Notes: generated by a model not told the origin, from the letters alone. Counted from the stretch's first letter, positions 358-19,429 are shown. The stretch is DNA of 19,514 nt from a virus (IMGVR_UViG_2585427793_000004:1-19514), one strand, 5' to 3'. Program-made: numbers and translations.

Positions 358-369
358 AAAAGCACCTGT

Positions 370-396
370 GAAGCAGATTTAAACGTGGTCTGCTTC
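370..396 (-). promoter_or_regulatory. Perfect 8-bp inverted repeat upstream of the lysozyme gene
   Basis: GAAGCAGA-N11-TCTGCTTC, 13 bp upstream of the ATG at 357 and just downstream (minus-strand sense) of the terminator at 411-437. Function not determinable from sequence. Confidence 0.3.
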
Positions 397-410
397 ATGG
401 TGCCGGAGGC

Positions 411-437
411 ATAAAAAAAGCCGGATTTACCGGCTTC
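411..437 (-). terminator. Rho-independent terminator ending the early/middle transcript
   Basis: Minus-strand RNA reads AAGCCGG-UAAAU-CCGGCUU followed by a run of 7 U; lies ~25 nt 3' of the stop of CDS 459-956. Confidence 0.7.
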
Positions 438-458
438 ATTGAATATCAGGTTATTGAC

Positions 459-1902: not shown

Positions 1903-2215
1903 TATGTCCCCCGGATTTAAAAATTAATTCAGTGTTGAATAGCTCTTTACTCATTCGCTGTAGCACATCAAGGGCGGCAACTGCCGCCACTTTATCCTGG
2001 CTGGCAATGATTCCCCGCAACTCTTCGATAATCCATGCAGGACTTAATGATTCAGCAATCATCATGCGCTTTTCTGAAATTAAATTTTCTCTGGCCTGCT
2101 CAAAGTGCTGGTATACAACATTATCCAGAAAATAATTTACATCTTGTTCTGACATACCACTGGAAATTAAGGTTGCAGCCATTAAATCAGCATCAGTAAT
2201 CATCTGTATTTTCAT
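1880..2215 (-). CDS. Hypothetical early protein, 111 aa
   Basis: Track ORF 1880-2248 trimmed to the ATG at 2215, which has an AGAGG RBS (MKIQMITDADLMAATLISSG...). Same strand and tight packing with flanking early genes. Confidence 0.5.
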   Translation of the reverse strand: MKIQMITDADLMAATLISSGMSEQDVNYFLDNVVYQHFEQARENLISEKRMMIAESLSPAWIIEELRGIIASQDKVAAVAALDVLQRMSKELFNTELIFKSGGHNEPHIPD

Positions 2216-2390
2216 TTCGTAATACCTCTTCGCAATAAAAGATTTCACCGGGATAACGTTTTTGTATGCGCTCCATCACCTGCATACATGCCTGCTCTGT
2301 GGGCCAGATTTTTTCTGTTACCGGGATAGCATCACAGGCATCATTCCCGCAGGTGCCAACCAGCAGGACAAAGCCAATTGACTTAATCAT
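2193..2390 (-). CDS. Small Cys-rich hypothetical protein, 65 aa, with hydrophobic N-terminus
   Basis: Track ORF 2193-2486 trimmed to the ATG at 2390 (MIKSIGFVLLVGTCGND...), which overlaps the stop of the upstream gene in ATGA-like fashion. Six cysteines. The longer track start lies inside the upstream CDS. Confidence 0.4.
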   Translation of the reverse strand: MIKSIGFVLLVGTCGNDACDAIPVTEKIWPTEQACMQVMERIQKRYPGEIFYCEEVLRNENTDDY

Positions 2391-2922
2391 GCTCACTGGC
2401 TTCCTGTGTTGCCGCCGGAACCGGTGAATAATCAAGAATGAGATAGCGCATGACGTGGTCGGTGATATTCCAGCCACTGGAGCCACAAATAAAACGTCCC
2501 AGCCGGATATCGATATACGCCATCACAAAACGGGGCATTCCCTGTTTGCACATTTCATCGCCCACTTCTGCAACGATGTAAACCGACTCGCAGGTCAGTA
2601 CGCCTGTCGCAAATTCTTTTGCCAGTGCCGGAATGGCATTGCCTTCCAGCCAGGGCAAAGAGCGGCGGAACGCACACCATTGAGCATCATCAACAGCGGG
2701 GTGCTCCGTTGTGTTTCGTCTTACCGGCGGCGTCGGGCGAGGGCGCGGAACATCATAAAACCCGTTGCATTCTGTCAGCATTCCGGCATCAACCGCATCA
2801 CGCAGGAAATACACCATTGAAGAAGGTGGCATATTCATTTTTTCCGCCAGAACGCCACAGGTCAGACGTCCGTAAGCCCGTAATAATGTACTGACACCGT
2901 TCAGAACTTTTGCATCAACCAT
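2383..2922 (-). CDS. Hypothetical early protein, 179 aa, possible winged-helix N-terminus
   Basis: ATG at 2922 with AGGA RBS; Pro-rich linker PRPRPTPPVRR between two halves. No family recognised. Confidence 0.55.
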   Translation of the reverse strand: MVDAKVLNGVSTLLRAYGRLTCGVLAEKMNMPPSSMVYFLRDAVDAGMLTECNGFYDVPRPRPTPPVRRNTTEHPAVDDAQWCAFRRSLPWLEGNAIPALAKEFATGVLTCESVYIVAEVGDEMCKQGMPRFVMAYIDIRLGRFICGSSGWNITDHVMRYLILDYSPVPAATQEASEHD

Positions 2923-3020
2923 TTTTTATTCCTGAGTAATCTGTTTCAGGCGCGAGCAATCCCCTGACGCATCGCGCCATAATTAAAAGAAAGTGAATTA
3001 ATTAAATATTCGTGGTGGTA

Positions 3021-3545
3021 TTAAATACCGGCTTCCTGTTCAAACGGAATAATAGAAAAATCTTCAATGCCTGATTTAACTGTAATTCCGGCGACACCTG
3101 CGACTGCTTTCGGTTCCAGTAAAATCGCTTCCTTGTTGATTTCCTGTTTCGTGCGAATAAAGCGTTGCAGGCCAAGACGCTCCAGCGTTTCCATCACCGC
3201 ATCCACACCGCGAATACTTACCGATGGTGGGCGCTGACGCCATTGCACATCACCGGTAACGAGGTTAGCACTTTTCACTTTGCCGCCGTTCGTCAGCTCG
3301 TCACGGTTCGCTTCACACCATCCCTGAACGCCTTTTGAAAGGGTTTCAATACTGGTTTTAAGGGGTGCAATCTGTGAGGCGTATTTCTCCGTAATCTCAG
3401 CGATAGCGTCATTCATTTCCGTTTCAAGTCGTGCCGCTTCGCGTTGCAGGTCACCAATCCGGCGGATATCACATACCACGGCATCACGGGATTGCGGAAC
3501 ATAAGTCGCTGCGGCGTTCCTGATTCGTTTTGCTGACTTAGCCAT
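3021..3545 (-). CDS. gam: Gam-like host-nuclease inhibitor (Mu Gam, Ku-like DNA-end-binding protein)
   Basis: 174 aa; ATG at 3545 with AGGAG RBS. MAKSAKRIRNAAATYVPQSRDAVVCDIRRIGDLQREAARLETEMNDAIAEITEKYA...NGGKVKSANLVTGDVQWRQRPPSVSIRG...EPKAVAGVAGITVKSGIEDFSIIPFEQ agrees closely with my recollection of Mu Gam. Confidence 0.85.
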   Translation of the reverse strand: MAKSAKRIRNAAATYVPQSRDAVVCDIRRIGDLQREAARLETEMNDAIAEITEKYASQIAPLKTSIETLSKGVQGWCEANRDELTNGGKVKSANLVTGDVQWRQRPPSVSIRGVDAVMETLERLGLQRFIRTKQEINKEAILLEPKAVAGVAGITVKSGIEDFSIIPFEQEAGI

Positions 3546-3565
3546 ATAAATAAAGCTCCTGTTAA

Positions 3566-3853
3566 TTAATATTCGCTGTATACAATACTGGATACAGCAC
3601 GATTGCTTAATTCCATCTTTTTGGCTATCACATGAATAGCCAGCCCTTCTTTATAAAGTTCACGACACAAATATTTGTCGTGCTCACTGATTCGGTATGC
3701 ACACAACGATATTCCGTGCCTTCTGGCATGTGCCCTGAGGGCCGTTGTGGCAACGTTCAGTTTTTTCGCCATTTCTTCAACGGTCATTTTTCCGACACTG
3801 GCTTCGATAAATTCCCGGTCTTCGCGTGACCAGCGTTTACGATTACACATCAT
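3566..3853 (-). CDS. Small DNA-binding protein with two HTH-like segments
   Basis: Track ORF 3566-3865 begins with GTG; the ATG at 3853 (MMCNRKRWSREDREF...) is preferred. Segments MTVEEMAKKLNVATTALRAHARRHGI and LAIHVIAKKMELSNRAVSSIV look like helix-turn-helix units. Confidence 0.5.
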   Translation of the reverse strand: MMCNRKRWSREDREFIEASVGKMTVEEMAKKLNVATTALRAHARRHGISLCAYRISEHDKYLCRELYKEGLAIHVIAKKMELSNRAVSSIVYSEY

Positions 3854-3865
3854 TCCGGTCACCAC

Positions 3866-4285
3866 TCAGTACAACAGGGGTTCGCGCAGTGATGCCGGAA
3901 TATGCCGCAGCGATAACTGAACCGCTTTCAGGGCAAGGGAAGAATACGTCCCCTGCGTCCAGCCTTTCGCCATTTGCCGGTACTCGCGCCAGATGTTCTG
4001 CCACTGCTCCCGTGCGTCCGGGTCTGACGCGCTGATGTATTCTCGGTCCATGACGTATTCCCATAAATCCACATTGAAGGCATTGCCAAACGTAATGGCG
4101 CGGAATACCGCCTCCCCGCAATAACGGGCACAAATGCTGTAATGGTCAAATGCAATCAGGTAAGTCTTTTCGCCATACCCCTTAACTTCGCGCGCGCAAA
4201 TAAATTCGCGCAAGTCTCCACCATTGCTATTACGCTCTTTAATCCGAATTAATGCCTGGATTTCGTTTCTGATTCTGGCGTTCAT
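3866..4285 (-). CDS. Hypothetical early protein, 139 aa
   Basis: Track ORF 3866-4333 trimmed to the ATG at 4285 with AAGGA RBS (MNARIRNEIQALIRIKERNSNGGDLREF...). No family recognised. Confidence 0.5.
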   Translation of the reverse strand: MNARIRNEIQALIRIKERNSNGGDLREFICAREVKGYGEKTYLIAFDHYSICARYCGEAVFRAITFGNAFNVDLWEYVMDREYISASDPDAREQWQNIWREYRQMAKGWTQGTYSSLALKAVQLSLRHIPASLREPLLY

Positions 4286-4305
4286 TGTCAGCGTTCCTTT
4301 GTGAA

Positions 4306-4575
4306 TTAATGTGTTGCGGCATCCGGGTTGCACCGGAATAACTCGCCTTCAACTTCCAGCCCGCGTTCCCTGGCGGATTCCAGCAACGCCCGGGTCGCCT
4401 TCTCAATAATTTCAGACGCCATACTCTTGATAATGCCTGCCATCAGATCATGCGGCCCGACCTGTCCCTCCGGGGATTGCTCTTCCAGCCGCACATTCAT
4501 ATTGATATAAAAATGGTTATTTCTTTGCATCTCAGCACTTTCTGCGCAATTAAATTCGAAGATGACCTTTGCCAT
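4306..4575 (-). CDS. Hypothetical early protein, 89 aa
   Basis: Track ORF 4306-4629 trimmed to the ATG at 4575 with GAGGA RBS (MAKVIFEFNCAESAEMQRNNHFYI...). Confidence 0.5.
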   Translation of the reverse strand: MAKVIFEFNCAESAEMQRNNHFYINMNVRLEEQSPEGQVGPHDLMAGIIKSMASEIIEKATRALLESARERGLEVEGELFRCNPDAATH

Positions 4576-4607
4576 TTTGTTATTCCTCACAAATAAAAAG
4601 TTCACTA

Positions 4608-4835
4608 TTAACGCCAGATAATCTGGCAACCATTAAGACGGGCTGTCCATACAGAACGGGCTACCCCGGACTTATGCTCCATAATTCTGACCGCGTTTTT
4701 TACCAGCTCCACCGGTGGGTATGTGATTTCAAGAATCGGACGAGCCACGCCGAGATATGATTCATTTACATGACTCCCGCGCGCCTGTAACCAGTTCTGC
4801 GCATCCGTCGCCATTTTGATATTCCGTGACATCAT
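4608..4835 (-). CDS. Small early protein, 75 aa, in the position of Mu kil
   Basis: ATG at 4835 with AAGGAG RBS, 14 nt after the B stop ([20 protein letters not shown]...). Assignment is positional only: in Mu the gene immediately after B is kil. Confidence 0.5.
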
Positions 4836-4848
4836 GATTTCGCTCTCC

Positions 4849-5787
4849 TTACGTGCGCAGCAGAGTTGAAATATCAACGTCCAGGTCTAATTCACGGAAA
4901 GCCTGACGCAGATAATCTTCATTAACTCGTTCACCTTTGCCGTGGGCGGTCATGGCCGCAAGGCGCAGCGAGTGGTTCAGGATTCGAAGCGCACCTGGTT
5001 TTTGTGCAATCTGCTGTAATAATTCCCGCTCGTTTTCGCCGGTAATTTGCCAGGCATCCGCAATGGCTTTTACATCATCAATTTTGGTTTTATTAATTGC
5101 CGTCCGCTTTGCAATACGGGAAAACAGGCGGGCAAATTCAACCGTTCTGTTACCGCCGGTCATGTTTGAATAAACACGGTGATTCCCCATCAGAACAAGA
5201 CCAATACGGGCGGATTCCTGTAACAGGCGGAGTTCTTCCAGAACCTCAGCGCCAAGATGATCAGCTTCGTCGATAATGACCAGCCCCTGCGTACCTTCAA
5301 GGCGGCGTCGCAAAGCGCGGGAGAGTGGCCCCTTACGGCGCGGTGCGTCATTCATTCCCAGTTCATAAGCCAGTTCAGTCAGGCATTCCAGAACACTGGC
5401 ACAGGATGGGGTAATGGTGATCAACCAGACATTGTTATTGGTGCGCCGAAATTCGCGGGCCGCTTCAGTTTTTCCCACACCTGGATTACCGCAGATAACA
5501 GAAATACTTTCAGTCAGACTGGCAAAACGCATACTCGTCCAGATTTGGCGTGCTGTTCTGGTTTCCACAAAACGCGGGGGTTCTGGCAGCTCTGCGGCGC
5601 GGTGATAGTTTTCCAGCCAGCGTTCCAGCGTCTGCGCGACACGGTCATTGTCTCCGTTGTACTTGTTATTCACGAATGCGCTTAACGTTCCTGCGGCCAC
5701 GCCGGACTCGCGGGCAATTTGTGCATAAGTTGTTTTTTCACTTTCTACAAGCGTGCGCAGTCCTGCGCGAATATCGGAAATATTCAT
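4849..5787 (-). CDS. B: Transposition ATPase / target DNA activator B (MuB-like, AAA+)
   Basis: 312 aa, the length of Mu B; Walker A GNPGVGKT and Walker [11 protein letters not shown]; N-terminal HTH. Near-identical over long stretches to Mu B as I recall it ([15 protein letters not shown]..., ...[12 protein letters not shown]). Confidence 0.9.
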
Positions 5788-5825
5788 CTGAATAACCTCG
5801 TAATTAAATTTTATTTAAACGTTAA

Positions 5826-7907
5826 TTAAATGGCTTTTTTACGTCTGTTCTGTTCCAGAATATCCAGCGAATGATTCAGATATTCGTCGCGGTCACTCTC
5901 ATATTCATCATCCGGTTCATCAGCCAGTACTAACACGACTTTCTCCACTGGTCTGTAGACGTTGTTGAACAACCCGTTGCCTGTAACAGGAGCAGGCAGT
6001 GTTCGGGTATTCTCTGCCTCGGCCAGTCTGATTTTTTCCTCTCCCCGCTGACGCATCCCTTTGATGCGCTGCTGGCGCTGATGGTATTCTGCAGTGACCG
6101 GGAATGCCTGCTGTTTATTGCCATCCCAGACCGCCTCACAGATATAGGACCCGTCCATGCGGCGGATAATTACTTTTGTTGCATCATGAATATCGTAATT
6201 CACCAGCACCTTATTACCGTGTTCATATTCCAGATCAGTTGAATAATAAATGTTATTAAACAACCTGACTTCACAACGGTTGACTGTACGTTCAATCTGC
6301 GGCATAAACATTTCACGCAGTTCAAGGTCGGACAACCATTCGATTTCTGTCGCTTCTTTTTCCAGTTTGTAGCGTCGGAACTGCGCCGGGGTGTAATGTT
6401 CACCGTTTCCACGTAGTGGTAGCGAACTATGCGGACGGTTGTTGTACCATTCCACACCAGCTTCAATAGCAACAATAAGTTCATTCCATGACGGCAGGTT
6501 TTTTAAAGCCTGCCGTTGTTTTTCTGTCAGCTCCCGTCCTTTGTTTGCCGCATTTGTTGCAGACATCAGAGTCTTTGTCATACGACGAACCGTTCCACGG
6601 TCGGCACCGGTGCCATAATACGTGGCAAACTGACGTGATATACGCATAGCCAGAGTGCGGTTCAGACGCTCTATAATCCCTCGCCCTTGCGGGTTTTCAG
6701 GTATACCAAGACGGTGATCAATTCCAAGACGCGGTAAAACCCCCGTGATATCAGCATCAAACGTGTTGTTAGTTTCACCGCCGCCATTATCTGAATAATA
6801 GATGTACGGTTTTCCGTGATTTTTAATTCCGTGGCGTAACGCATCAGCAACAGCAACCACACTTTCAGAAAGTGCCAGACTCCAGCCCACAATAAAGCGG
6901 CAACTGCCGTCCATGATAAAGGTGACTTCTGGAGAAAATGGATTGCCGTGATCAGGATGCGCCACTTTCATCTTCATGCCGTGACCATCACCAATCCAGG
7001 CATAATTCACCGGCAAAGATAACCAGTCCCGACGCACGAAGCCTTCATACTGGCGGAACTCACTGCCAGTAATGCGTCCGCGTTGTTTCACAACAACCGG
7101 GAGTTTGTTCATTGCATAGCAAACCTGATCATACGACGGCAGTGCTGCACACATCGCAGGATTATCCTGATGCACTTCATACCATTCCGCAGCAAAATCA
7201 TCATAAGCCTCCTGCATTCCGCACCCGTTCGGACGACGGTAAAAACGAAGAAACTCAGGTAACCAGCGAATCTGGTCGGGTTTTATGGGTTGACGTTTAC
7301 CAGGTGCCAGCATGATCAAACGTTCAGCCGGAGTGGTAGCCTTTTTAAAATCAGCAATCCAGCGTTTCAGTGATATTTCACTAAGGGATCGCAATGAACC
7401 TTTTTTCGCATTCGCAGTTGCAACGGTTTCCACCAGGTGTGCCGGTAACTCACCGTTTTTAGCCTGTTTCACAAACTCACGGATGGCAGCAGCCTGGCTG
7501 ATTCCTGGTAGTTCACAAACGCGCAAAACTTCGCTGACAATCGCAATTCGGGCGTCCGCTGTTTCTTTTTGCGTGGCGGTTAACGTTCCGAGTTTCTGCT
7601 CAAACAGCGCAGGACATTTGCGGTAAACCGCAATTTTGCCGTCTTCACGTTTTTTTAAACGCGGAGATTCAGGTTCTTTTGCCTCAGTTGCTGGCTGATT
7701 CATTAACGCCTTAATCTGGCGAGCCTGTAACGCCTTACGCGCCACATCAGGCAAACAGTCGACATGGAACTCAAAAGCCTTTGTCCCTGCACGCTTACGC
7801 ATCATTCCTTCTGATTCGCCGCAATAACGGCGCAATGCTTCCCGAATTCCTTTAATTGTTTTTGGTAATCCTGGTACACCGACCAGCTCTTTGGCGAGAA
7901 CAAACAT
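5826..7907 (-). CDS. A: DDE transposase A (MuA-like)
   Basis: 693 aa, ATG at 7907, 3 nt after the ner stop. N-terminal LPGLPKT motif as in the MuA DNA-binding domain; C-terminal tail ...DEYESDRDEYLNHSLDILEQNRRKKAI matches the MuA C-terminus as I remember it. Sits between ner and B as in Mu. Confidence 0.9.
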   Translation of the reverse strand: MFVLAKELVGVPGLPKTIKGIREALRRYCGESEGMMRKRAGTKAFEFHVDCLPDVARKALQARQIKALMNQPATEAKEPESPRLKKREDGKIAVYRKCPALFEQKLGTLTATQKETADARIAIVSEVLRVCELPGISQAAAIREFVKQAKNGELPAHLVETVATANAKKGSLRSLSEISLKRWIADFKKATTPAERLIMLAPGKRQPIKPDQIRWLPEFLRFYRRPNGCGMQEAYDDFAAEWYEVHQDNPAMCAALPSYDQVCYAMNKLPVVVKQRGRITGSEFRQYEGFVRRDWLSLPVNYAWIGDGHGMKMKVAHPDHGNPFSPEVTFIMDGSCRFIVGWSLALSESVVAVADALRHGIKNHGKPYIYYSDNGGGETNNTFDADITGVLPRLGIDHRLGIPENPQGRGIIERLNRTLAMRISRQFATYYGTGADRGTVRRMTKTLMSATNAANKGRELTEKQRQALKNLPSWNELIVAIEAGVEWYNNRPHSSLPLRGNGEHYTPAQFRRYKLEKEATEIEWLSDLELREMFMPQIERTVNRCEVRLFNNIYYSTDLEYEHGNKVLVNYDIHDATKVIIRRMDGSYICEAVWDGNKQQAFPVTAEYHQRQQRIKGMRQRGEEKIRLAEAENTRTLPAPVTGNGLFNNVYRPVEKVVLVLADEPDDEYESDRDEYLNHSLDILEQNRRKKAI

Positions 7908-7910
7908 AAA

Positions 7911-8159
7911 TCAGGATACCTTCTGAATGTAGCTTTCTGTCTGATAGCGGCTGGGCCAGATAGTTTCCGGTGCAACCCCCAGCGCATCAGCAACAATCTG
8001 CTGATAAGGTTTGCACGGTGTGCGTAAAACACTCTTGAGGGAGTCTTTGCTGTAACCCGCCTGAATGGACAGTGCGCGAAATGACAGTCCCCGTTTGTGA
8101 ATCTCTGCCTTAATGATTTCAGGGTGCCAATCGGCACGCGGATCTTCTTTTCGAGTCAT
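7911..8159 (-). CDS. ner: Ner-like DNA-binding early regulator
   Basis: 82 aa; ...ADWHPEIIKAEIHKRGLSFRALSIQAGYS...ETIWPSRYQ resembles Mu Ner (shared ...IWPSRYQ motif). Divergent from the repressor gene, immediately upstream of A. Confidence 0.8.
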   Translation of the reverse strand: MTRKEDPRADWHPEIIKAEIHKRGLSFRALSIQAGYSKDSLKSVLRTPCKPYQQIVADALGVAPETIWPSRYQTESYIQKVS

Positions 8160-8310
8160 GATTCCACTATCCTAAAAAGTTATCCGTGCGGATAACCGCG
8201 CGGTTATCCACTCGGACAAAGAATAAGAACACAAAAAGAACTTGTCAAATGTTCTTTTGTGTTTTTTATGTGTCTGCACTTTTTGTCTTTTAATTCAATT
8301 GGATAAGCAA
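8160..8310. promoter_or_regulatory. Divergent early/repressor promoter-operator region
   Basis: 151-bp gap between the divergent ner and repressor genes. Three alternating GTTATCC half-sites at 8179-8209 (GTTATCCG-TG-CGGATAAC-CGCGCG-GTTATCC), plus an imperfect palindrome CACAAAAAGAAC-N9-GTTCTTTTGTG at 8230-8261. Confidence 0.6.
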
Positions 8311-8922
8311 ATGAAACGTGAGACTCAAAAAGAACACAATGGTTCTTTTGCTCCTGATTCAAAAGAACCTGTTATCAATAGAATTTTTAAACTAGTAGAT
8401 CGCTATCGTTCGAGAAATGAAGCTGCGAAAGCGTGGGGAATCAACATCAATACGTTACAGAACTATTACAAACGTAAAGACCTCTCTCCAGTACCAAGAA
8501 AAACTCTGTTAGAAAAGATAGCGCAGTGTGAAGGGGTCAGCCTTGAATGGCTTCAAACCGGAGAGGGAAAAGAACCAGAAATGAACATAAAAAGAACTCA
8601 AGACGGTTTAGTGCCGCCTCATTCAGATTTAGATGATAAAATCCTATCGCTGATCCGCTTTTTGTCTGATAGCGAGAAAGAAGCGTTATTCCAGGTGCTT
8701 GCTCGCAAAGGGATAGAAACACTACTTTTTCTCCTTGACGAAGATAATATTCGCTTACTACAAATGGATCGCGTAGTGAAAGAGAAAATCCTGGGAATCC
8801 AGCCCAGAACGCCCGAGGAGCAGGCTTTTGCAGATAACGAGGCGAGAGAGTGTGATACCACTCATCCTTTACGCCATGAACAGTCCAAGAGCCTGACAAC
8901 TAAAAAGCAGCAGGCCCGCTGA
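8311..8922 (+). CDS. Phage repressor with CI-type helix-turn-helix
   Basis: Track ORF 8242-8922 starts at a TTG; first ATG is 8311 (MKRETQKEHNG..., 203 aa). NEAAKAWGININTLQNYYKRKDL...EGVSLEWLQTGEG resembles the phage CI-repressor HTH. Only convincing + strand gene in the window, divergent from ner as the Mu repressor is. Confidence 0.7.
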   Translation: MKRETQKEHNGSFAPDSKEPVINRIFKLVDRYRSRNEAAKAWGININTLQNYYKRKDLSPVPRKTLLEKIAQCEGVSLEWLQTGEGKEPEMNIKRTQDGLVPPHSDLDDKILSLIRFLSDSEKEALFQVLARKGIETLLFLLDEDNIRLLQMDRVVKEKILGIQPRTPEEQAFADNEARECDTTHPLRHEQSKSLTTKKQQAR

Positions 8923-9089
8923 TAGTAGTTTGCCTATTTCATTAGGCTGTTTTCGATGTTGGTGTAGAACTATGTCAACGCTGTAGCGGCCTGCTGATAC
9001 TCATTGCGGTAGATGTATGACTAAAACGAAGAAAAGATTTACTGCGAGCGAGGGAGTTTAAAAACCATCGAACAGTATTTGAAGGTTTT

Positions 9090-9249
9090 TTGACGTAGTA
9101 TCAAAAGTTTTACCCAAACTGGCATTTTCCTTTGATGGTATCAAAAAAGCGGTAACACGAAATCAGCCTAACAACACAACCTAACTCGTTGTTTTATCCC
9201 GCCAAATCCCGTTTATTCTAATGTTCTCCCGGTTTTCTCTCTGGTATCA
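9090..9249 (-). repeat. Mu-type left end (attL-like) with three direct copies of a transposase-binding-like repeat
   Basis: On the element strand the motif TTTGATAC(C/T)A-N5-8-AAAA occurs three times (+ strand GTATCAAA at 9099-9106, 9143-9150, 9245-9252), spaced like Mu L1/L2/L3. Element-strand sequence from 9249 inward, TGATACCAGAGAGAAAACCGGGAGAACATTAGAATAAACGGGATTTGGCGGGAT, resembles the Mu left end as I recall it (...GAAAAAAACCGGGAGGACATTGGATTATTCGGGATCTGATGGGAT...). Exact terminus uncertain by about 10 bp. Confidence 0.55.
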
Positions 9250-9627
9250 AATAAACTCCTTCTCAATAAGCAGGGTGCCACCGGCATAAACAATCTCGCC
9301 CCCCTGCGGATCCGGCATCCATCCAAGCAGGGCTTTCCAGAGTTCTCTCCGGACATCATGAACGGCGTCATAGGCTGCCCACTGCCCTTTTTCATCACGC
9401 TCATTGCTGAGCACAACAATCACGGAGAAGCCTTCTGTCAAATCCTGCCAGTAATCGGTCTGTGATTTTTGTTCCCCCGGTGCATCGTCAGAGGGAACCA
9501 CATAGGCAGCAGGCAGTCGCAGTTTTCCGGCATCAGGGATCGCCTTAAACTGCGCCGCGCCACCAACACGATCCTCAAAACGCGGGCATCGCTCACGCAA
9601 CGCCGCAATTATCGTTGTCAGTTTCAT
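9247..9627 (-). CDS. Phage neck / tail-terminator-like hypothetical protein, 126 aa, possibly 3'-truncated by the Mu-like insertion
   Basis: ATG at 9627 overlapping the stop of the upstream gene. Its TGA stop (9247-9249) falls inside the first bases of the putative Mu-like end, so the native C-terminus may be replaced. Family assignment is a guess from position after a gp10-like gene. Confidence 0.55.
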   Translation of the reverse strand: MKLTTIIAALRERCPRFEDRVGGAAQFKAIPDAGKLRLPAAYVVPSDDAPGEQKSQTDYWQDLTEGFSVIVVLSNERDEKGQWAAYDAVHDVRRELWKALLGWMPDPQGGEIVYAGGTLLIEKEFI

Positions 9628-10895: not shown

Positions 10896-12122
10896 TTACG
10901 CAGTGGCTTTCTGGCGGGTTGCAGCCCCAATTTTCATCAGCTTAATCGCCTGAGAATCCACCAGCATACCGCCGGTTCGCTTGGTGGTATAAAAACCCAC
11001 AAACGGTTTGTTGGTGTACGGATCGCGCAGGATACGGGTACCGATGCGATCAACGATGGTATAGCCACGTTTGAAGTTACCAAACGCAATGGCTTTTGCA
11101 TCGGCGGCAATATCCGGCATCTGCTCATTCTCAACGATGCCATACCCTGCCAGAGAAGAAGGCTGACCCAGCTCAATACCCGGACGCCACAGATAATTTC
11201 CGTCGTTATCCTTCAGCAGACGAATGGCAAACAGGCTGCTGTTGTTCATCATGAACTTCGCGCCGCTGCGGTGCGCCTTACGCAGGGTGTAAATCAGTTT
11301 AATGATCGCATCAGCGGTCACGCCGGAAGCCGCACCGGAAGCGATATGCTGAAGTTTGCCAAACTTACGGGTTTTGTCATCTTCATCGGTGGACTCATAA
11401 GCCAGAAAACCTTTTGGTTTTTTGCTGCCGTCGCCACTGGTAAAGGCCATTTCTTCCTGTTCGGCAAATTCCAGCGCCAGCTCACTGTTGATCCAGTCTT
11501 CCACATTGAAGAAAGCGTCATCGAGCATTTTCTGGGTGGCCTGCGGGTTGCCGTAGATTTCCCCCATAAAGGGTTCAATCAGCCCCAGTTTTGAGGTGGC
11601 GGTTTCCGGACGCGTATCCGTTTCCCCCACCCATCCGGACTTAGTGCCGCCCAGATTCACCAGTTTTTTATAATCCGAGCCACCGAGGGTGATCACGGTG
11701 GCTTCCTGGCGCATCACCACCTCATCTTTCAGCAGCGTCAGGATGGTACGATCCAGTTCTTCCGGAATGGCATAACCACCATCTTCATCATTGCCCACCT
11801 GAAGCGCCTTACGTTCAAGTTCACGCAGACCGTCTTCACGCCCCTTGCGCATAAATCCGATAAACGCTTCTTTGTGTTCACCGGCAACTTTATTTTTCGT
11901 GCCGCCTGCCGGACGCTTAACTTCAGCCAGCTCAGCCTCAAGATCGCTTTTCAGGTTTTCCAGCTCGCTGATTTGCCCGTTCAGGCTTTCCACCTGTTCG
12001 GCCAGCTTGCTTTTTTCCTGTTCGATCGCGTCAATGCGCTTGTCGTTTTTTGCCTTAAAATCGTCAAACTTCTGCTGCAAATCCTGCGCGACCTGTTCAA
12101 CGTCTTTAATATCAACAGCCAT
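10896..12122 (-). CDS. Major capsid protein, HK97 fold, with N-terminal scaffolding-like delta domain
   Basis: 408 aa; ATG at 12122 with AGGAG RBS. N-terminal ~100 aa are coiled-coil-like (KLAEQVESLNGQISELENLKSDLEAELAEVK), followed by a capsid domain, as in HK97 gp5-type proteins. Confidence 0.9.
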   Translation of the reverse strand: MAVDIKDVEQVAQDLQQKFDDFKAKNDKRIDAIEQEKSKLAEQVESLNGQISELENLKSDLEAELAEVKRPAGGTKNKVAGEHKEAFIGFMRKGREDGLRELERKALQVGNDEDGGYAIPEELDRTILTLLKDEVVMRQEATVITLGGSDYKKLVNLGGTKSGWVGETDTRPETATSKLGLIEPFMGEIYGNPQATQKMLDDAFFNVEDWINSELALEFAEQEEMAFTSGDGSKKPKGFLAYESTDEDDKTRKFGKLQHIASGAASGVTADAIIKLIYTLRKAHRSGAKFMMNNSSLFAIRLLKDNDGNYLWRPGIELGQPSSLAGYGIVENEQMPDIAADAKAIAFGNFKRGYTIVDRIGTRILRDPYTNKPFVGFYTTKRTGGMLVDSQAIKLMKIGAATRQKATA

Positions 12123-12135
12123 TATTTACTCCTGG

Positions 12136-12786
12136 TTAAAATTTAAGATTTTTCAGTGCATTCAGTGCGACATCCACATCCTCAGCATCACGCAGGGATA
12201 AAGCGCCATATCCCCCGGCCATGAATGCTTTGGCCTGGGTTCGCGAGAGTCCAACATCGCGCAGGACTCGCTCAATAATTTTCTGATCAGGGATCTCCCC
12301 ACGCGCCAGCGCATTTTTCACATCGCTGATGCGTGCTTCATCATTGGAAGGAAACGTCACCAGACTGACCTCCCACAGGTCGATCTCTTTCAGCAGGAAT
12401 ACCCCTTTTTCCCGGTCGTACTCCCAGTCTTTCAGGATGTAGCCAACAGAAAGGCCGGTTAAAGAACCGGCCTTCATATGGGCGTGTGCACGTTTTGCCA
12501 GGGGATCATCATCAACGAGTAATCGCCCCCTGACATAAAGCCCGACATCATCTTCTTTCATTTCGGTGTACACACCGATGGGCTCATCCATGCGGTGCTG
12601 CCAGAGCAACGCAGGCAGCGCCTTTTTTTCGCTCCATTTCTGGAGTGTTGTGGTAAAGGCACCGGGGACCACCACATCATCGTGGCTGTCCTTTACACCA
12701 AAGACGGAGCCATACCCTTCAAACTCACCGGAGTCACTGACAGATTTCAGACTCAGCGGTACATCAAGACGTTGTTTCGTCTGCAT
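12136..12786 (-). CDS. Prohead maturation protease (HK97 family, S78-like)
   Basis: Track ORF 12136-12822 trimmed to the ATG at 12786 with AAGGA RBS (MQTKQRLDVPLSLKSVSDSGEFEGYGSVFGVKDSHDDVV...). Lies between portal and capsid genes. Confidence 0.8.
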   Translation of the reverse strand: MQTKQRLDVPLSLKSVSDSGEFEGYGSVFGVKDSHDDVVVPGAFTTTLQKWSEKKALPALLWQHRMDEPIGVYTEMKEDDVGLYVRGRLLVDDDPLAKRAHAHMKAGSLTGLSVGYILKDWEYDREKGVFLLKEIDLWEVSLVTFPSNDEARISDVKNALARGEIPDQKIIERVLRDVGLSRTQAKAFMAGGYGALSLRDAEDVDVALNALKNLKF

Positions 12787-14005
12787 TGGCGTTATCCTTC
12801 TGCTTACCGGCTTTACTGCCATCGGAGGGTTTCGTGGTCATGTTCATCGGTGTGAGATAGACATCACCACCGGGACGCGGATTCATATCTTCCAGGTCGC
12901 GGCAGTCATTGGGAGAGTAAATTCTCCAGTTGATCCCCGTGGCGTAGGCTTCAAAACGGGATTTCATATCCCCGCGCAGTAACGCCCCGGCGTTAAATTT
13001 GGCGTAAAACTTCCCCTGTTTGCTCTCCCTGACCAGCCCTGTATTGATCCGTTGTTCAATACGGGTCAGATACGGCACAAGGGAATAGTTGATAAATCCG
13101 AGCCCCAGCTCTTCAATATTGTTGAAAGTGGCGCGATCGGTGTTCTGCACCATGTGCAGCGGCACGCGGAAAAGACGACAGATTTCTTCCAGCTGAAACT
13201 TGCGGGTTTCCAGGAACTGGCTGTCCTCGGCGTTCAGTGCCACCGGCTTCCAGTCCAGCCCCATTTCCAGAATCATCGGACGGTGCGCATTACCCAGCCC
13301 AAGATGCCGCTCCTCAAAATCCCTCTTCATGCGCTCATAAGCATCCGGCGTGAGCTTTTGTTCCGTACGCAACACACCGGATGTCACAGCACCGTTACCA
13401 AACAGCCTGGCGCCGTGCTCCTCGGTTGCCGCTGCCAGTGAAATGGCCTCGCGCGCATATGCAATGGGATTCAGACCGACAAGTCCATCCAGCGTCAGGG
13501 TGCGCACATGCCAGATTTCATCCTGGGTCAACACATCCACGGAGCCATCCGGAAACGTCACCTGATAAACCGGCTGCCACTGGCTGTTCAGCTTCGGCTC
13601 CACACAGCCCGGATCTATCGGAAGAAGCTCCACTACTTCCCCCAGCGCCTTCACCTTGTAGGCGTAAAAATTCCCCCGCAGACACAGGCAGACAATAACC
13701 AGCTCCCAGAATTCCTGCGGCGTCATGTAGCCATTGGGTTTTGCTGAAATCAGCTTATGCAGCCGTTCATCCACCGCCCGTGTTTTAAGGGTGCCGCTGA
13801 TTTTGTAGAGACTGCAGGGCAGCATACCAACAGACTCAGCCAGCACCCTGACGCAGGAATACACCGCCGTCAGCCGCATGGCCCGCTGGCTGCTGATCCG
13901 CTTTCCGGTATAGGTGTCGTATGACAACCCCAGCTCTTCCGCAAGCATCCCGGGCGTTGTGACGGGGGTGTTATTTTTACGTTGAAAAAGCCCCTGGAAA
14001 AACAT
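12764..14005 (-). CDS. Portal protein (HK97 family)
   Basis: 413 aa; ATG at 14005 with GGAGGTGA RBS. Size and position between large terminase and protease are canonical. Confidence 0.85.
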   Translation of the reverse strand: MFFQGLFQRKNNTPVTTPGMLAEELGLSYDTYTGKRISSQRAMRLTAVYSCVRVLAESVGMLPCSLYKISGTLKTRAVDERLHKLISAKPNGYMTPQEFWELVIVCLCLRGNFYAYKVKALGEVVELLPIDPGCVEPKLNSQWQPVYQVTFPDGSVDVLTQDEIWHVRTLTLDGLVGLNPIAYAREAISLAAATEEHGARLFGNGAVTSGVLRTEQKLTPDAYERMKRDFEERHLGLGNAHRPMILEMGLDWKPVALNAEDSQFLETRKFQLEEICRLFRVPLHMVQNTDRATFNNIEELGLGFINYSLVPYLTRIEQRINTGLVRESKQGKFYAKFNAGALLRGDMKSRFEAYATGINWRIYSPNDCRDLEDMNPRPGGDVYLTPMNMTTKPSDGSKAGKQKDNANADETTS

Positions 14006-14187
14006 TACTCACCTCCGGAGGCGACCCGGTGACCACGATCGAGATAACGCGCAACCAGCCACGACCAGCACAGACACAGCCCCCCGGCAACAACAAAACC
14101 CGCCGGGGGATAAATCAGCCAGGCGCCATACGCCAGCAAAAGCACACCCAGCACGCCCACCAGAGGCGTGAGAATTATCAGAAACAT
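14005..14187 (-). CDS. Small two-helix membrane protein, 60 aa, inserted between terminase and portal
   Basis: ATG at 14187 with GAGG RBS; stop overlaps the portal [52 protein letters not shown] has two hydrophobic helices. HK97-type modules normally have terminase and portal genes adjacent. Confidence 0.45.
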
Positions 14188-14198
14188 AATGACCTCGG

Positions 14199-15956
14199 TT
14201 AAAGCGAGCGAATACCAACGCTGACCAGATGTTCAGACAGATCCGGCTCCGGTTCACCGCCATTGACCAGCATCCGGCTCATTGCTGTAAACATCGCAAC
14301 AGGGCCGTCGATTTTGGCTTCCGGCGTGGATTTATTCGGGAAGATATTGTCGTTTTTGTCCGGTTTTACCGTAACGTTAGACATCATCCAGTTCATGACC
14401 GGATGATTGCTGTGGTGGAAACGCCCGGCATAGACCAGTGATTCCGTTTCCTTCATGGCCTCTGACAGATTGCGGACCGTCTGCGGAACTTCCACCAGCG
14501 GTATACCTTCTTCAGTCAGCGCCAGACTGAACTGCATTGCGCTCCACGGGTCAAATCCCAGTTCCCTCAGGTTTTCACCGCCAATCCATTCCAGTAGGTC
14601 ACTTTTGATCTGAGCATGATCGATAACATCACCATCCGTCAGGATGAGCTTACCCATCTCCGCCCACTTCCGGTAAAGTTCTGCCTGCTGCCGTGAGCAT
14701 CGTTCCAGCCGTCCTTCCGGAAGCCAGAATTTAAAATCGGCATGAACATGCCCGTTATCCGTTCGCCAGAGTTTTGCCGCCGCACAGATATCAATCTTAT
14801 GAGCAAGGTCGACGCCGACCCACATGGGATATGTTTTCAGCTCATGCTGTGGAGCAATGTATTCGCACTTCTCCCACTTAATCATGTCCATCCAGGCAGA
14901 CTCTGCTGTTACCCACACATTCATGTGTTTGGTAAAAAAATTCACCCGCGCAGAGACCTGTTCTTTCGCTTTTTTCGCCAGGCGACGCAGATCATCCCAG
15001 CGTTTACAGATGCCCAGGCCGGGATTCGCTTTCTGCCAGACCGTTTCATCAAACGGATCATCTCCCTCATCGAGGGTGTAAATAATCGCAAAGTAGGAGT
15101 CGTCTTTTACCGCGCCCTCCACGTCGCTGTTATAGCCTCGCAATACCTTGATGGCGTAATCGCGTTGCTCGTAACAAATCCCTTCCTTGTTAAAGCCAGC
15201 CGTGGTGATACCAAATAACAGGGACTGCAGACGGGCACCGGTTGCCGTTTCCAGAACGTCCCACACGTCGCGGGTTTTATGTGCATGCAGCTCATCAATA
15301 ATGGCGCAGTGGATGTTCAGACCATCCAGGTTGTTTGCATCCGAGGAAAGCGGTTCAAATTTTGATGCGCTCTGCTCCTGGTAAATCGCCAGCTTGTTGA
15401 AATCAAACAACCGCCCGAGTGTCGATCGGGCTTTTCTGACCATATTTTTGGCGTCTTCAAACACGATTCTGGCCTGGTCACGCGTGGTTGCGGCTGAATA
15501 CACCTCAGCCCCGCCTTCACCATCTGCCCCCGTCATATACAGACCGATACCTGATGACAGGGTTGATTTTGCGTTTTTACGGGCGACTTCGTTGTACGCT
15601 GTCCGGAAACGGCGCACCATCACCGGGCGTCCGCTGCCATCGCTGCGCATGACAACTTCCCCGGTCTCTTCATTCACCAGCGGAATGACAAAACCAAAAA
15701 TATTAATGAGGATAAAAACATGCCAGTCCATCAGTTCAATGGGCTGACCTGCCAGCGCCCCTTTTACATGGGGCACAAATTTGTAGAAATTCAGGATGTG
15801 CTGCGCACGGGGTTCACTGAAATAAATCCCCCGCTCTTCGCCGTACTTCAGATCATCAAGAAAACGCTGGCAGGCCAGACGGACAAATTCACCAGCGACA
15901 ATTTCTCCTGCAACAACACGTTCGGCGTAGCGGATCCCGTCAGCCACTTTTGCCAT
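14199..15956 (-). CDS. Terminase large subunit
   Basis: 585 aa; ATG at 15956, ATGA overlap with the small-subunit stop. Size and placement between small terminase and portal. Confidence 0.9.
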
Positions 15957-16438
15957 CAGTCTCTCGCTTTTAAAAGTTCTGCCAGCGGATCAACATCATC
16001 CGGTCCGGCGATATTTACTTTCGCCCGGCTTGCCGGTGACATACCAAATTCTGCAAGCATCGCCCGGATCCGCTTCCAGGCATCCGCTTTCATCGCAGCA
16101 GCCGGGTGTGCCTTAATCAGCACATCACCGTTCTGCGTTTCCGTGCGGTAGGTATAACCCTCAACATCGAGTGTTTCGCAGTGATGCCGGTATTCGGTGT
16201 AGGCTTCCACCAGCAACTCGAGTGCACGCGCATCAAGCTGAGAAATGATCCCTTCCGCATTCAGCTCTTCCGCCATTCGCCTGAACCAGTACTTTCCCTG
16301 CGCCCCTAAATGCTGCGGAATTTTAGGGAGACCTTTTTCGTCCTTTTTAGCGGTTTTTTTGGCGTCTTTAACGGGACGCTTTGAGGGATTGCCTCGTATC
16401 AAATGCAGGCGTGGCGGGGGTTTCGGGGGGCCTGACAT
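15956..16438 (-). CDS. Terminase small subunit (P27-family-like)
   Basis: 160 aa; basic, Lys/Pro-rich N-terminus (MSGPPKPPPRLHLIRGNPSKRPVKDAKK) then a helical domain; directly upstream of the large subunit. Confidence 0.75.
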   Translation of the reverse strand: MSGPPKPPPRLHLIRGNPSKRPVKDAKKTAKKDEKGLPKIPQHLGAQGKYWFRRMAEELNAEGIISQLDARALELLVEAYTEYRHHCETLDVEGYTYRTETQNGDVLIKAHPAAAMKADAWKRIRAMLAEFGMSPASRAKVNIAGPDDVDPLAELLKARD

Positions 16439-16585: not shown

Positions 16586-16936
16586 TCACCTGATTCGTTC
16601 GCGCGCTGTTTTCGCTTTATGGCAGGGCCAGCACAGACTCTGCAGGTTGCTGTCTGCGTCTGTTCCGCCATGCGCTTTCGGGATGATGTGGTCGACGGTT
16701 TTCGCCTCGCTCACCACACCGGCACGCAGACACAACTGACACAGACCTTTATCGCGCTTCAGAATACGGGCACGAATCACCGTCCATTTTGAGCCATAGC
16801 CACGCTGGTGGCGGCTCAGTCCGCGCTGGTGCTGCACCCAGCCTTCACCACGATGTTTATCACAGTAGCCAGAGCTGTCTGTTGTTGTGCCTGCGCAGCC
16901 TCGCTTACGACAGGCGCGGGGGATCCGTGATGGCAT
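16586..16936 (-). CDS. HNH endonuclease (terminase-associated)
   Basis: Track ORF 16586-17005 starts at a GTG; the ATG at 16936 has a strong AAGGAG RBS (MPSRIPRACRKRGCAGT...). Cys pairs CxxC...CxxC and the H-x-x-P-x-x-x-G-G motif (DHIIPKAHGGTD...CWPCH) are typical HNH; placement before the terminase is classical for HK97-like phages. Confidence 0.8.
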   Translation of the reverse strand: MPSRIPRACRKRGCAGTTTDSSGYCDKHRGEGWVQHQRGLSRHQRGYGSKWTVIRARILKRDKGLCQLCLRAGVVSEAKTVDHIIPKAHGGTDADSNLQSLCWPCHKAKTARERIR

Positions 16937-16997
16937 TGGAATCTCCTTAATACCGACATTATCGCAGCCCCTCACTGAAGAGCTGCTGTAATGCCTG

Positions 16998-17126
16998 TTA
17001 CTCACGAATCAATCGAGCATGTTGACCGCTCATTTCAACATGTTGACCGCTCATTTCAATGCGTAAGTATTGTGGCTTGCCGTCAATCAACGCGGTGATT
17101 AACTTATCACCTGTAGGTTTCCACAT
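16998..17126 (-). CDS. Small ORF, 42 aa, containing a 21-bp in-frame tandem duplication
   Basis: ATG at 17126 with AGGAGA RBS; translation MWKPTGDKLITALIDGKPQYLRIEMSGQHVEMSGQHARLIRE; TAA at 16998-17000. Below the track's 60-aa cutoff. Coding status uncertain. Confidence 0.3.
   Translation of the reverse strand: MWKPTGDKLITALIDGKPQYLRIEMSGQHVEMSGQHARLIRE
17018..17059. repeat. Perfect 21-bp direct tandem duplication (2 copies)
   Basis: CATGTTGACCGCTCATTTCAA at 17018-17038 and again at 17039-17059, with no mismatches. Confidence 0.95.
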
Positions 17127-17729: not shown

Positions 17730-18107
17730 TTATCGCTTCAGCTGAAAGTGAGGTCCGTCTTTCAGCGTTTTCCAGTCCCCGCCCCATTCGATAGCGATCC
17801 CCAGCTCTGCGGCAGCCTGCTTAAATGCCTGTGCGATTTTCTCGTACAGAGGCCACTCCCATGACACCTGACTGCCAATGTAGGCCACAACATCCACCGC
17901 ATCACCGGTCAGGTGGCGGCTGTTCATGGTCTGGCTTTTCCCTTCCGCAACCAGCTGTTTCTGGCGATACTTACTGCGCAGGCCTTCCGTAATACCGAAA
18001 TCAACCTCCGTCAGCTCCAGCGCACGGCGAACTACAGCAACCAGCTGTGGTTTGACACCCTCCAGATTTTTTTCACTGCGACGGCTGAATCTGAATTTAC
18101 CCGGCAT
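17730..18107 (-). CDS. Endolysin, peptidase M15-like (L-alanyl-D-glutamate peptidase type)
   Basis: Track ORF starts at a GTG (18113); the ATG at 18107 follows a GAGG RBS (MPGKFRFSRRSEKNLEG...). Zinc-site-like pattern SRHLTGDAVD ... DGPHFQ (H-x-x-x-D ... H) typical of M15 phage endolysins. Confidence 0.75.
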   Translation of the reverse strand: MPGKFRFSRRSEKNLEGVKPQLVAVVRRALELTEVDFGITEGLRSKYRQKQLVAEGKSQTMNSRHLTGDAVDVVAYIGSQVSWEWPLYEKIAQAFKQAAAELGIAIEWGGDWKTLKDGPHFQLKR

Positions 18108-18109
18108 AT

Positions 18110-18385
18110 TCACCTCAACAATGGAAAGATTTTTGTGACGTTCCCGCGTGCGCGTATCACCAGCACGCAGAACAGCAGATTAAAAAACACTTCCAGCCAG
18201 CCCGTTGCTAACGGGCGACCACACAGATAGCTGAGGGGCGCAAAGGCATACAGCAGCATCAGCAGCCAGGCCAGCCATGACACCAGCGGTTTATGTCTGG
18301 AATCACGGCGACGATAAAAAAAGAGCGTCAGCACGATAACCGTGCATAACGCCACATTCAGCAATCCGGGAAGGTTACTTAACAT
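18110..18385 (-). CDS. Lysis-cassette membrane protein (holin or antiholin candidate), 91 aa
   Basis: Track ORF 18110-18439 trimmed to the ATG at 18385 with GGAGG RBS (MLSNLPGLLNVALCTVIVLTLFFYRRRDSRHKPLVSWLAWLLMLLYAF...). At least two hydrophobic helices; immediately upstream of the endolysin. Confidence 0.55.
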   Translation of the reverse strand: MLSNLPGLLNVALCTVIVLTLFFYRRRDSRHKPLVSWLAWLLMLLYAFAPLSYLCGRPLATGWLEVFFNLLFCVLVIRARGNVTKIFPLLR

Positions 18386-18767
18386 TGCCGCCTCCTCCAC
18401 CCCGCAGGCGGGAGAACACACCGGACACCAGCGATGCAATATCCTGCTGGTGGATGAACGAGAGAATCTTCACCGACACCACCGAGACCAGCACCGCGCA
18501 AAGCGCATCTGCTGATGTACCGTCATACCCTGTTTTTGATGCAATCCAGGCTGACAGCACACGCGCTCCCAGCACGCCGACAATAAACGACACCAGAAAA
18601 TGTGCCACCACGCGCCAGACTGAAAGTGACTGTGGCATCGTTGCCACAAATAACGCCCCGGCGAACGCGCCAAACACAATCCCGAAATCCATTCCGGTAA
18701 ACAGCCCGAATACCGTCGCGCCACCCAGCGCCGCAGCCGTGCCGGAACCGGATAAGGGTTCAGACAT
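18375..18767 (-). CDS. Holin-like membrane protein, 130 aa
   Basis: ATG at 18767 with strong AGGAGG RBS; Gly/Ala-rich hydrophobic helices (GLFTGMDFGIVFGAFAGALFVA..., VAHFLVSFIVGVLGARVL...); first gene of the lysis cluster. Confidence 0.6.
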   Translation of the reverse strand: MSEPLSGSGTAAALGGATVFGLFTGMDFGIVFGAFAGALFVATMPQSLSVWRVVAHFLVSFIVGVLGARVLSAWIASKTGYDGTSADALCAVLVSVVSVKILSFIHQQDIASLVSGVFSRLRGGGGGNVK

Positions 18768-18854: not shown

Positions 18855-19007
18855 TTATTCAGATTTACGCAGTAAAGGCCGGAGCACGACCAGCGCCATC
18901 ACCACCAGCACACCATCTGCCAGCACCGACATCAGTCGTCCGGTGAAATCAACCACCACTACCAGAAACAACAGGATGACAGCCAGCACAAGGCGCGCAC
19001 TTTTCAC
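18855..19007 (-). CDS. Small hydrophobic peptide, 50 aa from a GTG start (25 aa from the internal ATG)
   Basis: GTG at 19007 preceded by GGAG, overlapping the TerB-like stop. (V)KSARLVLAVILLFLVVVVDFTGRLMSVLADGVLVVMALVVLRPLLRKSE is two hydrophobic helices. Not in the track (under 60 aa). Coding status uncertain. Confidence 0.3.
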   Translation of the reverse strand: MKSARLVLAVILLFLVVVVDFTGRLMSVLADGVLVVMALVVLRPLLRKSE

Positions 19008-19429
19008 AGGTACTGCTCCAGCGGCAACTGCAGCGCCTGCGCAATTTTCTTCAGTTGCGCTTCTTCTTCCTGAGCGATACCGTCCTGGTCAGCGATATCC
19101 AGACACAGGCACAGCACATTAACTGCATCATCAGTACCGGCAACATCAGCCAGCTGACGAAGAGCTTCGGCATTGGCAGAACGCGGCGACGCTTCATAAC
19201 GGGCGCGGATATTTGCACTCATTTGTGCAATCTCACCGGAGAACGGCGCAAAGGCAGGAAGTGCTGCAATGGTTTTTTCCAGTACCGCGATTTCTTTCGC
19301 GTCACAGGTGCCGTCAGCGTATGCAATGGAGTACGCGCCCCAGACGGTCGCCTCCACTGCGTCACGGTTCTCCATCTTCTTCACTTCGGTAATGGCCTTG
19401 CGGGTTTTCTTTTTGAAAATACCAAACAT
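19004..19429 (-). CDS. TerB-like domain protein (tellurite-resistance TerB / DjlA-N-like fold), 141 aa
   Basis: ATG at 19429 with AAAAGGAAAAG RBS. Amphipathic helical protein with acidic C-terminal half (LCLCLDIADQDGIAQEEEAQLKKIAQ) that resembles TerB-family proteins; family call is from pattern memory only. Confidence 0.55.
   Translation of the reverse strand: MFGIFKKKTRKAITEVKKMENRDAVEATVWGAYSIAYADGTCDAKEIAVLEKTIAALPAFAPFSGEIAQMSANIRARYEASPRSANAEALRQLADVAGTDDAVNVLCLCLDIADQDGIAQEEEAQLKKIAQALQLPLEQYL

Follow-up and report, generated by a model that had tools for sequence, protein, structure and literature searches.

A conserved small membrane-protein gene adjoining the portal gene in a phiP27-like prophage and its relatives

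The viral DNA stretch IMGVR_UViG_2585427793_000004:1-19514 (19 514 nt; this whole stretch is called the window below) carries on its minus strand a small gene wedged between the large terminase gene, TerL (14199..15956; PF03354 and PF20441), and the portal gene (12764..14005; PF04860, Pfam E-value 1.3e-107). The small gene (14005..14187, minus strand) has an ATG start and 60 codons, encodes a 60-a.a. membrane protein of the YmfR / PHROG 502 family, and is examined here together with its linkage to the portal gene. Its start lies 11 nt downstream of the TerL stop codon (14199-14201) and is preceded, at a distance of 5 nt, by a Shine–Dalgarno GAGG (14193..14196) that we read from the sequence. 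At its other end the stop codon TAA (14007-14005) and the portal ATG (14005-14003) have one base in common, giving TAATG at 14003..14007, and the Shine–Dalgarno GGAGG of the portal gene, also read from the sequence, is at 14012..14016, inside codons 58-59 (Gly-Gly) of the small gene. An initial annotation had described a small open reading frame (ORF) between the two large genes with a good ribosome-binding site (RBS) and a stop codon overlapping the portal ATG, and the locus is as it described.

The small protein has two hydrophobic stretches (approximately residues 2-25 and 30-47; hydropathy score GRAVY 1.18), and AlphaFold2, given an alignment of 24 sequences, predicts a hairpin of two helices (residues 2-25 and 27-57; mean pLDDT 76), in line with the two transmembrane helices of the initial annotation. 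Lysines and arginines are unevenly distributed across the family: a sequence has on average 0.67 of them ahead of helix 1 (the N-tail), 0.12 between the helices (the turn) and 2.56 beyond helix 2 (the C-tail). By the positive-inside rule both ends of the protein would be cytoplasmic and the turn periplasmic (N-in/C-in), so that the membrane topology prediction proposed by the initial annotation gives a two-helix hairpin with both ends inside. The protein would accordingly insert in the inner membrane as a helical hairpin, with a predicted periplasm-facing turn of 4-5 residues, YPPAG.

For the analysis of selection we used 51 distinct DNA versions of the small ORF, collected from 91 loci, and the Nei–Gojobori ratio of nonsynonymous to synonymous substitution rates (dN/dS). 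Variable sites number 31, 20 and 43 at codon positions 1, 2 and 3, respectively, and the annotated frame has a dN/dS of 0.34, compared with 0.5-1.6 for the remaining five: the small gene is under purifying selection in the annotated frame only. Two other ORFs in this region were considered as alternative genes, one of 84 a.a. (14009..14263, minus strand) and one of 57 a.a. (plus strand), and both were rejected, as the dN/dS of their frames is within the 0.5-1.6 range. The parts of the gene differ: dN/dS is 0.21 for codons 1-50 and 0.95 for the last ten codons. Conservation is concentrated in the glycines and aromatic residues of both helices and in the turn, and the C-tail drifts freely. Since the constraint lies within the helices and the turn, the protein most likely acts inside the membrane, by associating with itself or by binding another membrane protein. 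The C-terminal Gly-Gly is invariant in the otherwise drifting tail because the portal GGAGG is embedded there, not because of a constraint on the protein.

We then compared the locus with its close relatives, a set of 95 loci whose portals are 72-100% identical to that of the window. The small ORF is intact, with the one-base overlap with the portal gene, in 94 of the 95 loci (it is frameshifted in the remaining one, from Shigella flexneri), and the junction ahead of it, TAAC[CT]GAGG[TG][AC]ATT-ATG, is kept in relatives. The initial annotation had asked whether the ORF and its reading frame are conserved in related prophages; with these counts and the frame-specific dN/dS, they are. TerL in the same 95 loci falls into three types, ∼99%, 37% and 31% identical to that of the window, and the region of homology to phiP27 has its limit at window position 14216, in the last TerL codons. 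The reciprocal situation is seen in vB_EcoS-813R8 and its relatives, which have the TerL type of the window (∼95% nucleotide identity) followed by a 53-a.a. family member only 30% identical to the small protein, and, downstream of it in vB_EcoS-813R8, a portal 28% identical to that of the window. That the same TerL is found with a diverged small gene and a diverged portal gene points to the small gene plus the portal gene as the inherited unit. By these sequence comparisons the small gene is no independent insertion: it and the PF04860 portal gene form one inherited cassette, next to which TerL is exchangeable.

Recombination between the TerL types has its joint at the TerL 3' end and in the opening codons of the small gene (loci L016-L095; window 14188-14216). 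Small proteins encoded after a 99% or 31% TerL begin with MFLI, and those after a 37% TerL with MIML; these four residues follow the TerL type because the joint is at the start of the small gene, and the locus is a clean case of modules exchanged where two genes meet. Frameshifted copies were observed in the Shigella flexneri locus mentioned above (L015, CP182557.1) and in four protein-set members (P0099, P0101, P0102 and P0109). They show decay of the small gene in some lysogens; that Shigella genome also has a second copy (L004), which is intact.

The family extends well beyond these relatives. When 1.84 billion representative proteins were searched with the family profile, 471 clusters matched at E ≤ 0.001, nearly all of 45-120 a.a. 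Their shared motifs are G-x-x-G-(6)-G in helix 1, a (Y)-x-P-A-G turn, and a glycine in helix 2, which ends with W-S-x-x-x-A-R/K; even members of ∼30% identity keep the glycines, PAG turn and WS motif. Four members (P0151, P0187, P0227 and P0267; 102-122 a.a.) have two profile-matched stretches each, and would seem to be four-helix forms that arose by tandem duplication. In five contigs encoding distant members (one of them from the TARA ocean survey) the gene directly follows a large upstream gene in all five, which Pfam confirms as TerL in three; a PF04860 portal gene comes next in all four informative contigs (the fifth stops after 31 codons of the downstream gene). The pairing of small gene and portal gene occurs with S78 or S49 proteases. 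A tblastn search of one distant member (P0160) against cultured phages gave no match.

A larger set of diverged loci came from a pattern search of viral contigs, built on the motif of the small protein itself (subgroup A4), which gave 80 loci, 78 of them containing the ORF. The downstream gene is a PF04860 portal gene in all 78, although pairwise identity among these portals is only ∼24-34%; TerL lies upstream in 64 out of 71 loci. Stop and start codons overlap in 72 out of 78 loci (by one base in 66 and by four bases in six). By annotation, the pairing is seen both in myovirus-type relatives (vB_EcoM names) and in siphovirus-type relatives (vB_KpnS and vB_YenS names).

How common is a small gene at this position? 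We sampled 22 lineages, a systematic spread of portal matches in cultured phages plus HK97, and found a two-helix mini-ORF directly upstream of the portal gene in nine of them: phiP27, Vibrio K322, Burkholderia phi644-2 (gp3), Pseudomonas D3, Mycobacterium ThreeRngTarjay (gp10), Bacillus phIS3501, vB_EcoS-813R8, Vibrio Va_91-7-154_p41 and Ralstonia YO190_1. Scores against the family profile are 45 bits for phi644-2, 31 for vB_EcoS-813R8, 25 for Ralstonia YO190_1, 20 for Vibrio K322, 17 for Va_91-7-154_p41, 16 for ThreeRngTarjay and ∼0 for D3 and phIS3501; the best of 2000 shuffled sequences scores 13 bits. The phIS3501 mini-ORF (L190:723-884) is unannotated, encodes a two-helix protein of 53 a.a. 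and lies in a 189-nt gap between TerL and the portal gene. Adjacency of TerL and portal genes is described as typical in the general literature (PMC7302621), and the initial annotation took the two to be almost always adjacent, which made the arrangement in the window look unusual. Neither point survives this sample of PF04860-portal lineages: with a two-helix mini-gene intervening in nine out of 22, such a gene at the junction is common.

The small gene belongs to a known, uncharacterized family and is not new as a sequence feature. The protein matches PHROG 502 ('membrane protein'; E-value 3e-25, profile positions 3-56 of 58), which PHROGs places in the category 'moron, auxiliary metabolic gene and host takeover', and it shows the marks of the family: a length of ∼50-70 a.a., two helices, G11, G14, G21, P-A-G, G35 and W-S. 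Its homologues include the ymfR product (YmfR) of the e14 element of Escherichia coli K-12, L37 of phiP27 and Sb3 of ST64B (75-100% identical, 60 a.a.), and megablast and tblastn searches show that homologues in phiP27, ST64B, SfI and SfII are annotated as 'putative integral membrane protein'. Public databases already hold the protein of the window at 100% identity (P0001); the protein matches 127 protein clusters, and the gene region is matched in 780 out of 5426 complete E. coli genomes. Profile searches found no Pfam, NCBIfam or PADLOC match. Among solved structures the best match has an E-value no lower than 6 by fold and 0.98 by sequence, and a bare helical hairpin is uninformative as a query in a fold search. 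Family #350024 of Sberro et al. was considered as a relative and proved unrelated. The literature that we searched on ymfR, on phiP27, ST64B and SfV, and on small membrane proteins between terminase and portal genes contains no functional assignment. The mRNA of ymfR rises with those of other e14 genes in treated cells in which the SOS response is induced as well (PMC10012262), and ymfR was a first-round hit in an over-expression screen.

Several database records of this gene have annotation problems. The label 'head-tail joining protein W' is given to it in several GenBank records (among ON470580, ON470603, ON470584 and PQ793804), and the gene is left unannotated in SfIV (KC814930/NC_022749) and in the siphovirus PY54 (AJ564013/NC_005069). 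Two records attributed to Gram-positive organisms carry the enterobacterial cassette: JAEWTL010000102.1 (L006; 'MAG: Bacillota bacterium'), whose portal is 88% identical, and OR844959.1 ('Enterococcus phage Efm 3-10', 1764 bp). Both encode a small protein with 75-77% identity, and their Gram-positive attribution is likely due to mis-binning or contamination.

The initial annotation suggested that the gene is a moron expressed with the late operon, for example one encoding a superinfection-exclusion or membrane-targeting toxin-like peptide. Expression with the late operon fits what we found, as the gene reads as part of the operon and has signals for coupling to the portal gene; the rest of the suggestion is not supported. 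The gene has neither a promoter nor a terminator of its own: the sole promoter-like match has its −10 element inside the ORF, with none upstream, and the sole terminator-like match is the palindrome at the portal Shine–Dalgarno, within coding sequence. The near-complete conservation among close relatives and the portal gene downstream in all 78 diverged loci also speak against a moron. No presence/absence variation is seen among close relatives (the gene is present in 95 out of 95 loci, counting the frameshifted one). Its GC content (0.596) is above that of its neighbours (0.52-0.57), an excess due to Gly, Ala and Leu codons, and its GC content at third codon positions (0.62) is within the neighbours' range (0.54-0.65). 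As for exclusion or toxicity, the protein has no similarity to a described exclusion or defence protein in PADLOC, Pfam, NCBIfam or the PDB, and the proposal finds no support in matches to defence or exclusion models. We conclude that the gene is, very probably, a conserved portal-linked membrane-protein gene and not a moron.

The overlapping stop and start codons, together with the portal RBS inside the ORF, suggest that the small gene is translationally coupled to the portal gene. The GGAGG of the portal gene is kept in all C-terminal variants of the small gene. In the window this RBS lies within a palindrome, TCGCCTCCGGAGGTGA (CCTCCGGAGG; 14009-14024, minus strand), which could fold and mask the RBS until a ribosome passes. 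A conserved mRNA hairpin masking the portal RBS was nevertheless rejected, because the CCTCCGGAGG palindrome is absent from other C-terminal variants (which end in GGCGGAGGTAAATAG).

The surroundings of the cassette are those of a standard late operon, which runs on the minus strand from the lysis genes through the connector genes. Upstream of TerL are the small terminase gene (15956-16438), an HNH endonuclease gene (16586-17005), an endolysin gene (17730-18113) and two overlapping holin-family ORFs (18375-18767, phrog_198; 18110-18439, phrog_217), preceded by an ORF (19004-19429) that matches phrog_632 ('tellurite resistance'). Downstream of the portal gene are genes for an S78 prohead protease (12136-12822) and an HK97-fold major capsid protein (10896-12122), and the connector genes, down to 9624; all of these are on the minus strand. 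Into this phiP27-like prophage a Mu-like transposable prophage has been inserted, of which the left end and the early region are present (window 1-9270; junction at ∼9269-9276). Homology to phiP27 runs from 9900 down to ∼9269, beyond which the Yersinia phage vB_YpM_Tongde matches at 97%. The Mu-like part encodes a repressor-like ORF (8242-8922, plus strand) and, on the minus strand, Ner-like (7911-8159), MuA-like transposase (5826-7907), MuB-like (4849-5787), Gam (3021-3545) and Mor-like activator (953-1354) proteins. A motif, TTTGATAC, occurs three times within 9090-9250, and its copies may be end-binding sites of the transposase. The ORF at 9247-9627 was probably truncated by the Mu-like insertion.

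What might the protein do? On the late message the small gene would be translated just after TerL, from no promoter of its own, and ribosomes that end the small gene would be placed to start the portal gene, given the overlapping stop codon and the embedded RBS. We infer that the gene is expressed late and in step with the portal gene. The protein would then be a late-made inner-membrane hairpin, N-in/C-in, that may serve as an inner-membrane accessory in head morphogenesis or packaging, for example as a membrane site for portal assembly; that it contacts the portal is speculative. Taken as a whole, the best explanation, held tentatively and at somewhat less than even confidence, is a YmfR-family inner-membrane hairpin, encoded in a cassette with and coupled to the portal gene, that supports portal, prohead or packaging functions. 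The specific role of portal helper, suggested by the fixed linkage to the portal gene and by analogy with gp40 of phage T4, is possible and, on balance, rather doubtful. Broader still is the idea that a large share of HK97-type phages, from several bacterial phyla, have in their head module an ignored gene for an inner-membrane hairpin of roughly 60 residues, inherited and translated together with the portal gene, which provides a membrane step in portal assembly, prohead initiation or packaging, and this we consider improbable.

Several observations weigh against a supporting role for the protein in portal assembly or packaging. The mini-gene is absent from the junction in 13 out of the 22 sampled lineages, including HK97, Caulobacter W2 and several Gram-positive phages, so it cannot be a general requirement of this assembly pathway. 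A mirror-tree comparison, in which identities between small proteins follow those between portals (rho 0.19) and not those between TerL proteins (rho −0.03), gave a weak signal and counts as supporting evidence only, since the diverged loci were chosen through the motif of the small protein itself. The C-tail, the only cytoplasm-exposed part, evolves neutrally, which argues against a specific contact between tail and portal. Portal N-termini encoded after the small gene have a hydrophobic motif of the M-x-x-LFG-x-L type, which HK97 and Caulobacter W2 lack; as a docking partner for the small protein this motif had to be dropped, since it is also found in portals without the small gene (Javan639, vB_E354 and Mcat31). 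The literature searched yielded no experiment bearing on the function of the small gene, and we know of no membrane step in HK97-type head assembly. The portal motif itself takes forms such as MFFxGLF, MRGLFGSLA and MAGLFGAIA (window 13985-14005, minus strand; loci L107-L186 and L188-L193) and resembles a membrane-active peptide.

Among the other explanations, the one that fares best is a late membrane effector directed against the host or other phages (by blocking DNA entry, silencing a defence or modulating a host complex), for which the position beside the portal gene would set only timing and dosage. Many small hairpin proteins regulate larger membrane proteins, and the conserved residues here cluster within the membrane and at the periplasmic turn rather than in the cytoplasmic tail. 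The PHROGs category of the family is of this kind, HK97-like relatives without the gene can dispense with it, and in the decayed e14 element of K-12 ymfR is intact while the flanking TerL and portal genes are pseudogenes. But genes of such effectors are usually patchy and fast-evolving, whereas this one is always beside the portal gene in the diverged loci and is under purifying selection. Without a promoter of its own it would be silent in the lysogen, where exclusion pays, and defence and exclusion models are not matched. Such an effector would, moreover, need a host target shared by proteobacterial hosts and, on a borderline match, possibly by Actinobacteria. We consider an effector unlikely.

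A holin-like or lysis-timing protein, that is, a hairpin in the style of class II holins that aids or delays permeabilization, is suggested by the size, the two N-in/C-in helices rich in glycine, the basic C-tail (as in class II holins) and the late expression. The window, however, has its own lysis cassette (17730-18767, with two holin-family genes and the endolysin), as do distant carriers; no holin PHROG is matched, the class II holin S21 68 (its sequence entered by hand) scores only 0.3 bits against the family profile, and the small gene always adjoins the portal gene and never an endolysin gene. This makes a lysis function very unlikely. Slightly less probable again is a minor virion or ejection protein at the portal vertex, inserted in the inner membrane of the recipient during DNA delivery. 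Hydrophobic ejected proteins exist in other phages, and coupling to the portal gene would match the amounts of the two proteins; however, a protein with a GRAVY of 1.18 and two full hydrophobic helices should be captured by the membrane of the producing cell during its synthesis, no sequence or fold match to a solved virion structure was found, and the gene is present with both contractile and non-contractile tails, which themselves supply a membrane conduit. Least probable of all is a pure coupling leader, whose translation sets portal output relative to TerL and whose peptide has no function: the near-universal stop/start overlap, the portal RBS inside the ORF and a palindrome that could mask this RBS until a ribosome passes would suit it, but the amino acids are conserved (dN/dS 0.21 outside the tail, with glycines, PAG turn and WS motif kept to ∼30% identity), the two-helix architecture recurs without sequence similarity (in D3 and phIS3501), and the palindrome is not kept in other C-terminal variants.

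Returning to support of portal assembly or packaging as the preferred explanation, the textbook account of HK97-type head assembly includes no membrane protein tied so firmly to the portal gene. If a membrane step exists, the situation of gp20 and gp40 in T4 would recur within the best-studied 'membrane-free' assembly pathway. The strict tie of the family to the portal gene across very different phages was not found remarked in the literature searched. Although the small gene is ordinary as a sequence feature, its function is a cheap and well-posed question in inducible prophages of E. coli, Shigella and Salmonella.

Comparison with known systems places the gene as follows. The genes for YmfR, L37 and Sb3 and those of SfI and SfII share the site between TerL and portal genes and the stop/start overlap; their 60-a.a. 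products are 75-82% identical and differ in substance only in the first four residues. The mini-genes of phi644-2 (gp3, 'membrane protein'), Ralstonia, Vibrio and vB_EcoS-813R8 have the same site and hairpin at 20-45 bits against the profile; they are ∼30% identical, their portals are 28-35% identical, and they are accompanied by other protease types. HK97 itself has no gene between TerL and portal. Its gp15, also a small inner-membrane protein from the late region of an HK97-type phage, is a superinfection-exclusion protein and the product of a classic moron, expressed independently in the lysogen; the small gene differs from it in lacking a promoter and a terminator, in being fixed beside the portal gene and in being widely conserved. 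In phage lambda, too, a small gene, that of gpW, separates gene A (large terminase) from gene B (portal), but gpW is soluble and its role follows packaging, whereas the product here is a hydrophobic two-helix hairpin without a Pfam match; the label 'head-tail joining protein W' looks like a positional mis-annotation. Class II holins and pinholins (S68 of phage 21) are alike in size, in the two N-in/C-in helices and in their glycine content, but S68 has no profile similarity (the 0.3 bits given above), the small gene is not beside an endolysin gene, and the window has holins of its own. To our knowledge, T4 gp40, a membrane factor for assembly of the gp20 portal, is the only well-known membrane protein that aids portal or prohead initiation; its likeness to the small protein would be one of function only, as the portal family and the gene arrangement of T4 differ and no homology is claimed or expected.

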